Below, one piece after another: positions 183 to 16,241 of a stretch of 17,365 bases of DNA. The stretch lies in IMG/VR virus record IMGVR_UViG_3300028833_002934. The stretch is one strand, 5' to 3'. The stretch is from a virus. The position numbers and the translations under genes are program-made. Under the pieces are notes generated by a model. It was not told the origin of the DNA and made no database searches. It saw nothing but the letters and a program-made list of their open reading frames with translations. Each line of letters starts with the position of its first letter. Position 1 is the stretch's first letter.

Positions 183-211
183 ATTATATAATTTTTTTTT
201 TAAATTTTCAA
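183..211 (-). promoter_or_regulatory. Recurrent promoter module (minus strand: TTGAAA-17-TATAAT), transcribes leftward out of window
   Basis: Plus-strand tttcaa at 206-211 and attata at 183-188, with a 17 nt spacer. The module matches the copies at 5106, 7903, 12337 and 14878. Confidence 0.5.
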
Positions 212-1821
212 ATAGCCGTGTAATCTGCGATAACATCAGGGATACTAGAATTTAAATCAAATATTTCAGCGAATCTATCCTTATCAATCACATCATCTAA
301 TGTAATATAATATTTGACATCCCAAAGACGTTTGTCTATACGAGGTTTATTATTAAATACTTTAAAATATTCTGGGTTAGTATCAGGATCATATACATAA
401 ATGACATTATCATAATAAATAGGATTATTGTTATCATCATACCCAATTAACCAATGAAGGCAATCACAATGTTGTGCAAGATGAGAATAACCAGTTAGAT
501 CATCAACGACACATTCAGTTTCAAAACATTCTTCACAAATAGGATCATCTAAATCATCAATATAATAAAAATAATCTTTAGGAAGATAATCTCCGCAGCA
601 AGCGCAATAAGTTCCATTATCGCATTTTATGCACATTACGGCATTATCTCTTTCTCTATCTTCTATTGGTTGCCCACACCACATACATGTGGCTAAACCT
701 CCATAAGAAAATTCTGCCATATAATGCCAATTTGTTGCTTCTTTATCTTGCCATTCAGTTAAATGATATTTCCCTATTTTATTACGATTAATTCTTGCAC
801 GATGCGTATCAAGAGTCCCAAAATCATTATACATATATTGCTCAGGGGAAATATTAATAAGTAAATCATCATCTTCATTCCAAGGAATAGTATTAGCAAC
901 ATTTATTTCATCATTATCATAAGTCCATCCTAAATTATTTTCTGCCAATTCTTTAATCCACATTAAGACCGTATTTGTTAAATGTAGATCTTGGAAACAA
1001 TATCCTTTAATCTCTGACATCATTTCTGGATAAACAACGAATAATTCACGCCAATGTTTACTATTCCATTCCATACCTTGAATAGGCTCCATAGTATGTT
1101 CTGGATTATGCAAATATGCTACTAAAATATATGGAGAATTCATACACTCTATAGTGCCACATCTATAATCTCCATGATCCATCCAACTCATACAACTAGA
1201 CCAATTATTATTATTATCACTCATTGTCATAAAATCTAATGGATGGATTGATAAACAAAGTTCCCCATCAACCATTTTACTATTTAACATTTGAGAATGC
1301 CAAAGTCTAAAATTTTCAAAAATTTGTTCATCACATTTATATTTTTGTGCAATTTTAGATAAAATACGTAATGGGCGCATACCTTTTGATACTTTAAATT
1401 TTTCATTATCTGGTGGCAAATAATAGGTTGTCGTTGCATAAGGGTATTTATTATCTGCTAATACTGATAAATCAAAAGTATCCCTAATCATAGTATAAAC
1501 ACCATAATCTTGAGTTGACATAGGCCCCAAGACTTCTTTTTTTATCCACTATGAAAAATTCTCATAAGCTGGAGTATATTTCTCTATTGACATTTTTTTT
1601 ACTATTGCATCTGTATTATACATATAAGTATAAGGACGCCGCACAATAAAATTATTTCCTAAAAGTTTGTATAAAGTTTGTTTTTGGCGATCCCATTCGT
1701 GTAATATAATATCAAATCCACTAAAATCATGCTCTGGTTCATAATTATCATTAATGGGACCAAATGTTCTAATATAATTATAAATTAAATCTTTATCTTG
1801 TTCTGAAAGTTTTTCTATCAT
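208..1821 (-). CDS. Large Cys-rich hypothetical protein (~537 aa) if TAG at 1549-1551 is read through. Under the standard code it splits into two ORFs, 1549..1821 (90 aa) and 208..1530.
   Basis: Track ORFs 1549..1821 and 208..1530 share one frame (codon boundaries at 1821 and 1530 are both 0 mod 3). They are separated only by TAG at 1549-1551 plus 6 sense codons. RBS AAAGGAC lies upstream of ATG at 1821. The track's start at 1530 is TTG. The stop is TGA at 208-210. The C-terminal half carries many CxxC pairs. Function is not recognised. Confidence 0.5.
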
Positions 1822-1842
1822 TGTTTGTCCTTTAACAGCAAA

Positions 1843-1876
1843 AATTCAAAGGATTAAATATTAATCCTTTGAATTA
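1843..1876 (-). terminator. Intrinsic terminator-like hairpin between two minus-strand genes
   Basis: 14 bp perfect inverted repeat attcaaaggattaa/ttaatcctttgaat around a 3 nt loop. The plus-strand aaaaa at 1840-1844 is a U-run for the minus-strand transcript. The hairpin overlaps the TAA stop (1861-1863) of the upstream gene. Confidence 0.5.
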
Positions 1877-2793
1877 TCCTTTTCATTTACTTTATTATTC
1901 TTATCTTTCTTATTATTTAACATAAAATAAAGATATGGACTTCCACCCATTAACATCAACATAGTTGGATCAATATCTATATTATTTTTCTGTGTTAAAG
2001 CAAACAAAGCAAGTAAATTATTATTATTATTATTATCCTTAATAAACATTAAAGGAAGTAAACTACCAAATGGATTATTTGAATCAGCTTCTGGTAAATA
2101 ATCTGTAATAGATATAATAACAGTGACATAATTAAATCCAAATGGAGACATTGAAGGAAGGATTGTTAATTCTGTACCTTCATATGGGTTAATAACAACA
2201 AAACGGTTATCTTTAATTTCTTCAACAAACATCAAATTTCCATTATGAAGAACAATATCTCCAACCTCAACATCGCTTATTGCTTTTGGAAATTTATAGA
2301 AAATTTTAGAATTTTCAATTTCAATATTTAAAATATTAACATCAACAATAGCATTTCTCTAGCGATCAAAAGATACCCATTTATTCTCTTTATTTTTAAG
2401 AGCAATTCCAAAAGTAGAAAGACGTAAATTATTTGATGTATATGGGCCAAAACTAAAATCAGTATTACTCATTTTATCTTTTTGTTTTTCCTCCGCTAAT
2501 TTTTTCTCTATTATATCTTCTATAGACTACCATCCATTATTAGGCCATACATAAGATGACGATGTTAATGGTTGATAAGTAAAACTATAATCATTCGCAG
2601 TATAATCTCCTATTGAGATATTATTACTATATGTTTCTCCAGACTAAATAGTATATGTATCAGTAGATGATAGCCCAGTAACCTTGATACGATCATCTGC
2701 AATAGAAAACTATATACTACTATTATCATTACCACTTGTAATAGAATTTGAAGAACAAACTGTATTTACAGTGGATGTTAAATTATCAGACAT
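1861..2793 (-). CDS. Hypothetical protein, 310 aa, containing four in-frame TAG codons (recoded)
   Basis: ATG at 2793 lies 9 nt after GGAG. A single frame of 310 codons runs to TAA at 1861-1863. It is interrupted only by TAG at 2710-2712, 2644-2646, 2527-2529 and 2359-2361, with no in-frame TAA or TGA. The track saw only the last 124 aa (1861..2235). The N-terminus is Ser/Thr/Asn-rich. Confidence 0.6.
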
Positions 2794-2852
2794 TCTTTAC
2801 AACTCCAATACATTATTTTCTATATTAATTTTATCATTTTTTTTAAAGAATG

Positions 2853-3275
2853 TCAATAATCTTCATTTTCATCTTGAGCTTCTTGTTCAATAAAGAACAT
2901 TTCTCCATCAAAATGAACTTTTACTGTTTCATCTTCTATATAATTTTGGATATCTTCTGCTATTTGTTCTAATTCTTCTTCCGTATAAAGTTCCTCTATG
3001 TATTCGTTATCATAGGTTAAAAATAAAATAGCATCTTCAATAGAAGAACCAAATTCTCTATATTTATCATAAATATGAAAAAGATTTTCCTCAAAATTAC
3101 GAGCAAATGCTAAATCGAATAAATCTTCAATAGTATTTACTGTAAATTGTTTATCATTAACGACTATTGGGTCATCATTTTCATAAAGTTCTTGCAAAAG
3201 ATAAAAGTCATCTATATTATTATAAGATGTTAAACTTGCCATAGAACTTAGAAAAAAATCAATAGTTCTTGTCAA
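2853..3275 (-). CDS. Acidic hypothetical protein (140 aa from TTG). It may begin at ATG 3368 with a read-through TAG at 3306-3308.
   Basis: The track ORF starts at TTG. The same frame stays open upstream through a TAG to ATG at 3366-3368, 24 nt after the TGA stop of the upstream gene. Very acidic C-terminus. Stop is TGA at 2853-2855. Confidence 0.55.
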   Translation of the reverse strand: MTRTIDFFLSSMASLTSYNNIDDFYLLQELYENDDPIVVNDKQFTVNTIEDLFDLAFARNFEENLFHIYDKYREFGSSIEDAILFLTYDNEYIEELYTEEELEQIAEDIQNYIEDETVKVHFDGEMFFIEQEAQDENEDY

Positions 3276-3391
3276 TTCATGGTCATCAATTCCAGCAAGA
3301 TATCGCTACTTAGACGAAGTATCTAAATTTTTAAAATGAAAATATAAATCTTTAAATTCATCTAACATACTATTATAATAGACAAATTCTT

Positions 3392-15337: not shown

Positions 15338-15425
15338 CAAAAAATGCGAAAAAACTAGTAAAAATGCGGTAAAACTAGTGTAAAAACGATGAAAAATAGT
15401 AAAAAACTAGACAAAAGCTCGCTTT
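15338..15425. other. Eight helically phased A5-6 tracts at ~10-11 bp spacing; predicted intrinsically bent DNA
   Basis: The sequence reads aaaaaatgcg aaaaaactagt aaaaatgcggt aaaactagtgt aaaaacgatg aaaaatagt aaaaaactagac aaaag. Confidence 0.5.
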
Positions 15426-15649
15426 TGCCTAGTTTTAACGCTCATATGGAGTTTTTTTACCGATCGGGCCATATACTAGCCCACTTTTGTTTAAAATCGA
15501 GCCGCATATGGGGTTTTGTTAAGACTCACCGGCCGGGCCTCGATCGTAACGCTGCGGTTGGAAAAAGTTGGAAAAACTTTAGCGATTTAGCGTAGCAAAG
15601 TGCACAGTTTCGGGAAATTATGTAAACCGATCTTTGTGCAAAATTTCTC

Positions 15650-15678
15650 TTGACAATTTTCCTAAAATATGATATAAT
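15650..15678 (+). promoter_or_regulatory. Plus-strand consensus promoter TTGACA-17-TATAAT with an extended -10 TGa
   Basis: TTGACA at 15650-15655, TGATATAAT at 15670-15678, spacer 17 nt. Confidence 0.6.
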
Positions 15679-15684
15679 GGAAGT

Positions 15685-15768
15685 TCGGCCCTACGCTGGC
15701 GTCTCCGGGCCGATTTGCCCGGGCATTATTCAAAGGGGTGTATTATTATACACCCCTTATTTATCGTT
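15685..15768 (+). ncRNA. Candidate small RNA (~85 nt) running from the 15650 promoter to the 15734-15757 terminator
   Basis: No ORF is present. The transcript is GC-rich, has hairpins CGGCCC...GGGCCG and GGGCC...CCCGGGC, and ends in the stem AGGGGTGTA/TACACCCCT followed by UAUUUAU. Confidence 0.35.
15734..15757. terminator. Bidirectional terminator hairpin (9 bp G/C-rich stem, loop ttatta) overlapping the stop of gene 15757..16056
   Basis: aggggtgta-ttatta-tacacccct with T-rich sequence on the plus side. Confidence 0.5.
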
Positions 15769-16056
15769 CCAAAAATCTTCTATGTCCTGTAAAGTGGGAG
15801 CGTTGGGATTATCAAAGGTCGGTGCATCTTCTCTATCAAGAAGAAAATCAACGACATTTTCTTTGTGCCACCCATTATAAATGTCATCAGACACTTCCTC
15901 TGTGGCGTCCAAATCCCACACGACATCACTAAATCCATCACGCCCGCAAAAACCGCATTGAGTATTTACGGCGTGCCAAAATTTGCGTTCTGCTTCATCA
16001 GCATTTTCTGCTTCCACTTTCAGATAGCCAGAAAAATCAATCCAGTATTCTTTCAT
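15757..16056 (-). CDS. Hypothetical acidic protein, 99 aa
   Basis: AAGGGGCG RBS precedes ATG at 16056. Stop is TAA. Confidence 0.7.
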   Translation of the reverse strand: MKEYWIDFSGYLKVEAENADEAERKFWHAVNTQCGFCGRDGFSDVVWDLDATEEVSDDIYNGWHKENVVDFLLDREDAPTFDNPNAPTLQDIEDFWNDK

Positions 16057-16212
16057 TATTTAACGCCCCTTATTAAACTTCTAATGTATGCTTCTATACA
16101 TACCCACCAAGGCAACTGAAAGAAAGTATAGTTAAGTCGCCAAACCTTATTAGCATCTTCAAAACGTTCAAAAATTTTCATTTTTTATTTTTCCTTTCCT
16201 TTTGGTGATTAT

Positions 16213-16241
16213 AGTATATCAGATTAAAAAGGATTTGTCAA
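16213..16241 (-). promoter_or_regulatory. Promoter (minus strand: TTGACA-17-TATACT) for gene 15757..16056
   Basis: Plus-strand tgtcaa at 16236-16241 and agtata at 16213-16218, with a 17 nt spacer. Confidence 0.5.

Follow-up and report, generated by a model that had tools for sequence, protein, structure and literature searches.

In-frame TAG codons, probably read as glutamine, in a 17,365-bp window of a probable large phage genome

Gene content and TAG codons of the window

The stretch of DNA described here, the IMG/VR virus record IMGVR_UViG_3300028833_002934, is 17,365 bp long with a G+C content (GC) of approximately 31%; the term window is used hereafter for this whole stretch. This work concerns the codon TAG, which in the window lies inside genes and is most probably translated as glutamine (Gln); TAA and TGA still act as stops. 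An initial annotation of the same DNA proposed that TAG is a sense codon throughout the window, and counted at least 15 cases. In the present analysis the gene set was based on a six-frame translation in which TAG was marked separately, and 26 genes were accepted. Nine of these contain in-frame TAG codons, 22 altogether, and their frames have no internal TAA or TGA; 17 of the 26 genes end with TAA and nine with TGA. The proposed meaning of the three codons is therefore borne out, with a higher count than the one first given. The word throughout was an overstatement, since 17 of the 26 genes have no TAG, including those of a continuous block at 3392-7883. The TAG-bearing genes, together with this block and an adjacent repeat array, are listed below (aa, amino acids).

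Gene A, 208..1821, minus strand: 537 aa, Cys-rich, function unassigned; TAG at 1549-1551
Gene B, 1861..2793, minus strand: 310 aa, function unassigned; TAG at 2710-2712, 2644-2646, 2527-2529 and 2359-2361
Gene C, 2853..3395, minus strand: acidic, approximately 171-180 aa; TAG at 3306-3308
11-gene block, 3392..7883, minus strand: small genes with no TAG, for which the standard code suffices
Major vault protein (MVP) homologue, 7978..10425, minus strand: 815 aa; its sole TAG is codon 6, at 10408-10410
Acidic gene, 10499..10849, minus strand: 116 aa; TAG at 10802-10804 and 10676-10678
Formate/nitrite-transporter-like (FNT-like) gene, 10913..11521, plus strand: 202 codons; TAG at 10940, 11081, 11267, 11306 and 11330; ends with TGA
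Cys-rich gene, 11500..11865, minus strand: 121 aa, zinc-ribbon-like; TAG at 11830-11832 (codon 12), directly after a CxxC motif
Ribbon-helix-helix (RHH) repressor-like gene, 12473..12658, plus strand: TAG at 12491-12493 and 12572-12574, and two further TAGs directly before the closing TAA; start at 12452 or 12473
Rep-like gene, 12840..13292, plus strand: putative origin-binding protein, 150 codons; TAG at 12885, 13020 and 13056; ends with TGA
Iteron array, 13291..13770, no strand: at least eight copies of CGTCAAAAAGTTGGTAAATTTTACC; context of the Rep-like gene, outside the recoding

The four TAG codons of gene B, the five of the FNT-like gene and the single ones of the Cys-rich gene, the MVP gene and the gene A fusion were all re-derived as first described. 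The Rep-like and acidic genes do bear TAG, with three codons instead of two in the former and two instead of one in the latter; gene C and the RHH gene had been missed. On the other hand, a terminal TAG that had been assigned to a gene at 16232..16507 does not exist: the gene, which runs from 16238 to 16507, ends with GAT TGA and has no TAG.

The window was compared with related contig pieces from ENA, JGI, Logan and IMG/VR, labelled L001 and so on. L001, which comes from a contig of 249.7 kb, is approximately 92% identical to the window and collinear with it. L004 is 99% identical, and one window protein recurs unchanged in L012; both pieces belong to assembly ERZ27257202. In L006, L009 and L023 the protein identity to the window is only 40-50%. 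The gene order of the window is common to contigs of 105-250 kb, and related contigs of 150-250 kb are held in the IMG/VR viral-contig collection. A megablast of the whole window against phage and plasmid collections gave no match, and neither did a scan of the window with Rfam at E<=0.1.

TAG as a sense codon

Coding density was calculated with our own greedy, non-overlapping gene caller and not with Prodigal. For the whole window it is 0.725 under table 11 and 0.853 when TAG is sense, a gain of 12.8 points, versus 0.758 when TGA is sense. In the region 10451-13300 the corresponding values are 0.567, 0.893 and 0.568, and the same pattern across codes was found in L001, L006, L009 and L012. 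A gain of at least 10 points has been used as a criterion for recoding (PMC13037316); code 15 gives such a gain here, and the other reassignment, with TGA as sense, gives none that is comparable. The re-calling of genes that the initial annotation had put forward as a check therefore raised the density and also lengthened the proteins. The length or coverage of open reading frames (ORFs) taken alone was rejected as a test of the code, given that TGA-sense gives similar stop-to-stop figures, with shadow ORFs lying over real genes.

The frames were also compared with chance, modelled by 300 first-order Markov simulations of the window. Runs free of TAA and TGA of at least 150 codons appeared 0.44 times per simulated window and those of at least 200 codons 0.027 times, the longest being 242 codons. 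Gene B (311 codons) and the FNT-like frame (202 codons) thus exceed what chance produces; a run as long as that of gene B, already considered beyond chance in the initial annotation, was never seen in the 300 simulations. The Rep-like frame, with 150 codons, is not beyond chance on length alone.

The comparison with relatives revealed that TAG sits within conserved, selected coding sequence. In L001, 21 of the 22 window TAGs are still TAG and the other is CAG, and the changes within the TAG-dependent segments are mostly third-position and synonymous: between the third and fourth TAG of gene B all nine substitutions fall in the third position (0/0/9), and in the corresponding segments of the FNT-like gene the substitutions by codon position are 1/0/6. 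Seven TAG sites remain TAG in relatives of 40-50% protein identity. Each site recurs in 3-6 independent assemblies (ENA, JGI, Logan), and FNT codon 140 is CAG in three of them. The reproduction of these sites across 3-6 assemblies from three sources excludes assembly error.

Homologues run through the TAG positions, with TAG or a sense codon there, and do not end at them. The clearest case is the FNT-like gene, where the Pfam family PF01226 (E=3.2e-16, residues 9-196) spans all five TAGs, as the initial annotation had suspected. Three of these five are still TAG in relatives of approximately 50% identity and the remaining two stand opposite CAA or CAG; Gln stands opposite one of the FNT TAGs in FocA from V. 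cholerae. TAA and TGA still end genes, and the FNT-like TGA coincides with the C-terminus of 198-aa homologues. This FNT-family membrane protein is short (approximately 200 aa), has an EHCIAD motif and has syntenic homologues in many related contigs.

The MVP gene shows the same feature close to its start. The protein matches known families and structures (Pfam MVP_shoulder, 2.4e-20; Vault_3, 1.3e-8; solved MVP structures, 8.5e-21), and a ribosome-binding site, AAGGAG, followed by ATG is located upstream of the TAG codon. The nearest database phage match, the MVP of the 735-kb phage LR756501, with 41% identity to that of the window, comes from a region that uses the standard code, and its start, MEDKKGDLVLS, can be aligned with MNDNI#KDLVLS in the window, where # is TAG. 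The start of the LR756501 protein lies ahead of the TAG position, and codon 6 is therefore inside the window gene, in agreement with the homology first reported for it. In L072 the MVP has Gln at this position. MVP homologues were found in huge phages of 462-735 kb, and the first phage MVPs were reported in a 2023 preprint (10.1101/2023.11.10.566534). The GC of the MVP region is approximately 36%, above the rest of the window, and the Gln codons CAG and CAA are used in a ratio of 20:3 in this gene versus 16:67 across the other genes, which suggests that the MVP gene was recently acquired.

The remaining TAG-bearing genes behave in a similar way. The gene A TAG fuses two standard-code ORFs, 1549..1821 and 208..1530, and in L006 and L009 this gene is one continuous ORF with TGT where the window has TAG; its product matches phrog_18912. 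All four TAGs of gene B are retained in L001, and relatives encode 307-311 aa. The gene C TAG is retained in L001, L006 and L009, and the CAA at codon 144 of the window is TAG in all three. The second TAG of the acidic gene stands opposite CAA (Gln) in L006 and L009, and opposite Glu in L023. In the Cys-rich gene, the TAG position is Lys in more distant relatives, and AAG at codon 65 is TAG in L001. The RHH gene matches phrog_876, annotated as transcriptional repressor (E=2.4e-6). Its end, at 12650-12658, is TAG TAG TAA, and the same end is present in L001, L004 and L011; this would be a Gln-Gln extension under code 15 and a triple stop under the host code. For the Rep-like gene, homology to relatives holds from residue 5 on, the TAG at codon 73 is retained in L001, L006, L009 and L023, and L001 has TAG in place of the window CAG at codon 104.

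Calls made with code 15 on sister contigs (ENA, Logan) give 537 aa for gene A, 310-311 for gene B, 815 for MVP and 116 for the acidic gene. Under the standard code, the JGI calls on 3300028888 (L013 4695-7462) break up genes B and A and give products that measure 129, 37, 123, 90 and 349 aa, which is the fragmentation that the initial annotation had anticipated.

The amino acid inserted at TAG

Public gene calls on sister contigs already put Q at TAG (e.g., P0001). Such calls have TAG=Q preset and are not independent evidence; for this reason DNA was compared instead. Residues were tallied in true coding frames only, in either direction, each site and residue being counted once. Among the 52 residues opposite TAG in relatives, Q appears 8 times, K 6, N 5, E 4 and S 4, followed by a tail of others. 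The 8/52 for Gln represents a six-fold excess over its codon background of 2.4% (binomial p=3e-5). The BLOSUM62 sum over the TAG positions also favors Q (25), followed by E (12) and K (8), and is strongly negative for hydrophobic and aromatic residues. There are 8 independent sites where TAG swaps with one of the Gln codons, CAG or CAA. From this modest sample, Gln appears as the best-supported meaning of TAG; it was the amino acid initially suggested, and it is the commonest residue in the alignment that had been recommended as a check.

A candidate suppressor tRNA

Among the long contigs of the viral collection, the nearest relative is IMGVR_UViG_3300028805_000039 (239.5 kb), in which the N-terminus of MVP is 98% identical to that of the window, the product of g26 is 100% identical and other window proteins are 38-78% identical. 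This contig has 34 predicted tRNAs in an array located beyond the gene-A side of the region equivalent to the window. The last member of the array, 1.7 kb after tRNA-Gln(CUG) and approximately 30-45 kb from the window-equivalent region, is a tRNA(CUA). Out of about 130 tRNAs compared, its nearest non-suppressor relatives are tRNA-Gln(UUG), with 72% identity, and tRNA-Gln(CUG), with 65%; all three have the D-arm TGGTGTAATGGTAGCA in common and end in G73-CCA. Relatives of the window thus carry a tRNA-Gln-like tRNA(CUA). A gene of 114 aa is found immediately upstream of the tRNA(CUA) in nine contigs, with a weak PF08962 match in some members. One of the contigs with this pair, L192, has 2.3 kb and 31% GC and belongs to assembly ERZ27257202, the same as L004 and L012. 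The initial annotation had placed the suppressor elsewhere on the element or in the host; the tRNA(CUA) of the 239.5-kb contig and that of L192 agree with the first of these places, and from them we infer a link to the window, with L192 as the probable suppressor locus of this very genome.

Pattern searches that started from the tRNA(CUA) of a distant relative detected another family of suppressors, on contigs 100-200 kb long; in these searches this family was absent from the closest relative. Two contigs with the distant family also encode an MVP of 66-72% identity and show strong TAG recoding; in one of them, L109, the density rises from 0.61 to 0.87. In L072 (3853-13337) and L109 (1215-1808) there is a 14-tRNA array between MVP and FNT, with a tRNA(CUA) that has G73 and, between U1 and U72, a mismatch. 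This place is occupied in the window by the acidic gene alone; the array was therefore moved or replaced between lineages.

The array of IMGVR_UViG_3300028805_000039 (L172 3031-18246, L176 510-19476) includes unusual A34 anticodons (Cys-ACA, Thr-AGT and Ser-AGA) and several long or overlapping tRNA predictions. In a 247-kb relative, ARAGORN predicts a tmRNA-like gene inside the tRNA array (L185 17252-17591).

Alternative explanations

If the standard code applied, the genes interrupted by TAG (B, FNT-like, Rep-like, RHH and others) would be pseudogenes or unrelated short ORFs. The length of ORFs indeed shows no preference by itself for TAG-sense over TGA-sense, runs of 150 codons free of TAA and TGA are expected approximately 0.44 times per window by chance, and recoding is not needed for 17 genes. 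Nevertheless, the interruptions are always TAG and never TAA or TGA, frameshifts are absent, and the TAGs are retained in relatives from 92% down to 40-50% identity, with inter-TAG changes that are mostly third-position and synonymous; together with Pfam homology across five TAGs, the 311- and 202-codon runs above chance expectation and the matching tRNA(CUA) of the relatives, this makes decayed or spurious genes a very improbable explanation. The metagenomic source of the sequence also brings to mind sequencing or assembly artefacts, or a chimeric window, and the probability of this is negligible considering that each TAG is present in 3-6 independent assemblies obtained from differing samples and pipelines, and that the gene order is common to contigs of 105-250 kb.

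A different question is whether TAG could be sense with another meaning, such as Lys, Glu or pyrrolysine. K, N and E are also found opposite TAG (6, 5 and 4 times), ARAGORN labels the tRNA as tRNA-Pyl(cta), and the distant suppressor family (L072, L109) is not clearly Gln-like. However, Q is the top residue, with its six-fold enrichment (p=3e-5) and the best BLOSUM62 sum; an exchange between CAA and TAG needs two changes, suggesting a synonymous path via CAG; the suppressor of the closest relatives is nearer to tRNA-Gln than to any other isoacceptor; the Pyl label reflects only the CUA anticodon; and in the published phage cases TAG is read as Gln, with peptide evidence (PMC9523058). A non-Gln meaning thus has a small probability. 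Pyrrolysine in particular was rejected, since the tRNA(CUA) forms a normal cloverleaf resembling tRNA-Gln, unlike the atypical pylT; no pyl gene was found among the Pfam annotations of the neighbourhoods read, which represent a partial region of the genome. It is likewise unlikely that the recoding is real and the element is plasmid-like or otherwise non-viral. The iteron array with the Rep-like and RHH genes resembles a plasmid replication module, neither the window nor the flanks that were read showed a gene for a capsid, portal or terminase, and most proteins have no annotated family; against this, relatives of 150-240 kb are part of the IMG/VR viral-contig collection, relatives encode HNH endonucleases and have large tRNA arrays, PHROG matches were obtained for genes A, g5, g6 and RHH, and the MVP homologue is present in huge phages of 462-735 kb. 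The phage identity of the element is therefore indirect, through its IMG/VR relatives, the PHROG matches, the tRNA arrays and the huge-phage homologue.

The explanation that we favor, with a probability of about 0.88, is that TAG is translated, most probably as Gln (code 15), in a large phage genome in which TAA and TGA are stops. Several observations weigh against it. As was noted at the outset, tRNA searches detect no suppressor in the window; in fact it contains no tRNA of any kind and no CUA anticodon hairpin. Flanking sequence sampled from the nearest relatives (approximately 45 kb; L001, L004, L006, L009, L011, L012, L016, L021-L023 and L165) was searched with ARAGORN, also with introns allowed, and with the tRNA model of Rfam; only tRNA-Asn, Glu and Lys were detected, and no tRNA(CUA). 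The connection of L192 to the window is co-occurrence in one assembly and not physical linkage. The assignment to Gln is statistical, with K, E, N, S and D also opposite TAG, and the TAG sites are variable in the deepest comparisons. Several TAGs are close to the 5' end (MVP codon 6, FNT 10, Cys-rich 12, acidic 16 and Rep-like 16), and some of these genes may use a downstream start. Finally, no phage structural genes were seen in the window.

According to the explanation based on TAG as Gln, a phage-encoded, tRNA-Gln-like tRNA(CUA) would decode TAG, its gene being at the far end of the tRNA array beyond gene A. This tRNA would presumably be charged with Gln by the host glutaminyl-tRNA synthetase, and would compete with the host release factor 1 (RF1). 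The nine TAG-bearing genes would then be expressed at full length only once the suppressor is present, and the unmodified host machinery could read the TAG-free block. That this exact genome carries the tRNA(CUA) is likely, given its presence in the relatives.

Uneven use of TAG

The codon is not evenly distributed. The 11-gene block at 3392-7883 has no TAG versus 32 CAA/CAG, and the flanking modules have 20 versus 44 (Fisher p=1e-4); in the MVP gene, with 815 codons, there is one TAG versus 23 CAA/CAG. The mean relative position within genes is 0.35 for TAG versus 0.53 for CAA/CAG (Mann-Whitney p=0.006), and in all nine TAG-bearing genes the first TAG is located within the first fifth. With independent gene calls, this 5' bias was also found in L001, L012 and L009, but not in L006. 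The evidence for the bias is small and in part not independent, and it depends on which start codons are chosen.

It has been proposed that, through recoded codons, some genes come to depend on the suppressor (10.1101/2021.08.26.457843), and the patchy, 5'-biased use of TAG described here fits this published idea of recoding as a way of timing expression; the pattern would then have a role in timing. A more specific and rather doubtful possibility is that TAG acts as a translational gate rather than as an extra Gln codon, so that full-length synthesis awaits the suppressor and the TAG-free block can be read at once; the MVP gene, with its single TAG at codon 6, would be the extreme case.

Comparison with other recoded phages

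The reassignment of TAG to Gln with a phage tRNA(CUA), sometimes accompanied by release factor 2 (RF2), has been described in the Lak megaphages (PMC6784885, PMC8346664); in crAss-like phages there is peptide evidence for it (PMC9523058), and other TAG-recoded clades, such as Agate, Garnet, Amethyst and Topaz (10.1101/2021.08.26.457843), as well as recoded jumbo phages that include rumen ones (PMC13037316), are known. The window shares with the code-15 phages of the gut the in-frame TAG, the TAA and TGA stops, the break-up of genes when table 11 is applied and a rise in density of more than 10 points; the uneven, module-wise use of the recoded codon; and the low GC, the large genome and a probable origin in animal-gut-type metagenomes. 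The tRNA(CUA) within a tRNA array, also typical of these phages, was seen in the relatives of the window. Judged by its sequence, the window belongs to the code-15 class, with the suppressor tRNA seen in its relatives only.

There are also differences. The relatives of the window have 150-250 kb, unlike Lak (approximately 560 kb; 540-660 kb for the clade); no marker gene for a clade phylogeny being at hand, the window was assigned neither to Lak nor to another named clade. The nearest database phage match (735 kb, MVP 41%) uses the standard code in that region. The window TAGs are found in transporter, repressor-like and Rep-like genes and not in recognisable structural or lysis genes, and the parts that were read showed no gene for RF2, which accompanies the tRNA in some code-15 phages. 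With the code-4 phages (Jade and Sapphire clades), in which TGA is read as Trp, the system shares the same logic, i.e., a stop codon reassigned by a phage suppressor tRNA; here, in contrast, TGA is a genuine stop (nine genes), and reading it as sense gives no meaningful gain in density.

A well-known bacterial counterpart is the supE-type tRNA-Gln(CUA) of E. coli, which has G73 and the body of a tRNA-Gln whose CUG anticodon has become CUA, and which competes with RF1 to insert Gln at UAG. The tRNA(CUA) of the relatives also has a tRNA-Gln-like body, the CUA anticodon and G73. Unlike supE, it is encoded by a phage, in a large tRNA array and always behind a conserved 114-aa gene, and its charging is a prediction; moreover, the more distant relatives use the other tRNA(CUA) family, with the U1-U72 mismatch.

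Other features of the window

The iteron array is located directly downstream of the Rep-like gene, with the RHH gene upstream, and the GC skew changes sign nearby. The iterons have a palindromic core, GGTAAATTTTACC, and an AT-rich stretch comes after the array, at 13785-13860. The region 13291-13860 is probably a replication origin or a partition module. The name Rep-like, given in the initial annotation, found no profile support, as the gene has no Pfam or PHROG match; the putative function comes solely from the adjacent iterons.

In two stretches of the window, 13860-14376 and 14890-15750, no reassignment of stop codons yields coding sequence, and Rfam gives no match; these stretches hold short GC-rich palindromes beside T-runs. 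A sigma-70-like promoter motif (TTGAAA, spacer, TATAAT) is found on the minus strand at 12336-12385, 14877-14926, 15089-15138, 15204-15253, 15287-15336 and 10455-10490, with three tandem copies within a gene-poor stretch. A perfect TTGACA-N17-TATAAT is present on the plus strand at 15650-15684, facing minus-strand genes.

Significance

The recoding described here is a further case of a well-described phenomenon and involves no new principle. With it, the phages that read TAG as Gln gain a further large-phage lineage, whose predicted suppressor is tRNA-Gln-like and lies behind a 114-aa gene. In practical terms, annotation of this lineage with table 11 breaks 9 of the 26 genes, and code 15 is needed for gene calling. 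If the gating idea proved true, a consistent 5' bias of the recoded codons would sharpen the published hypothesis on the timing of phage gene expression.

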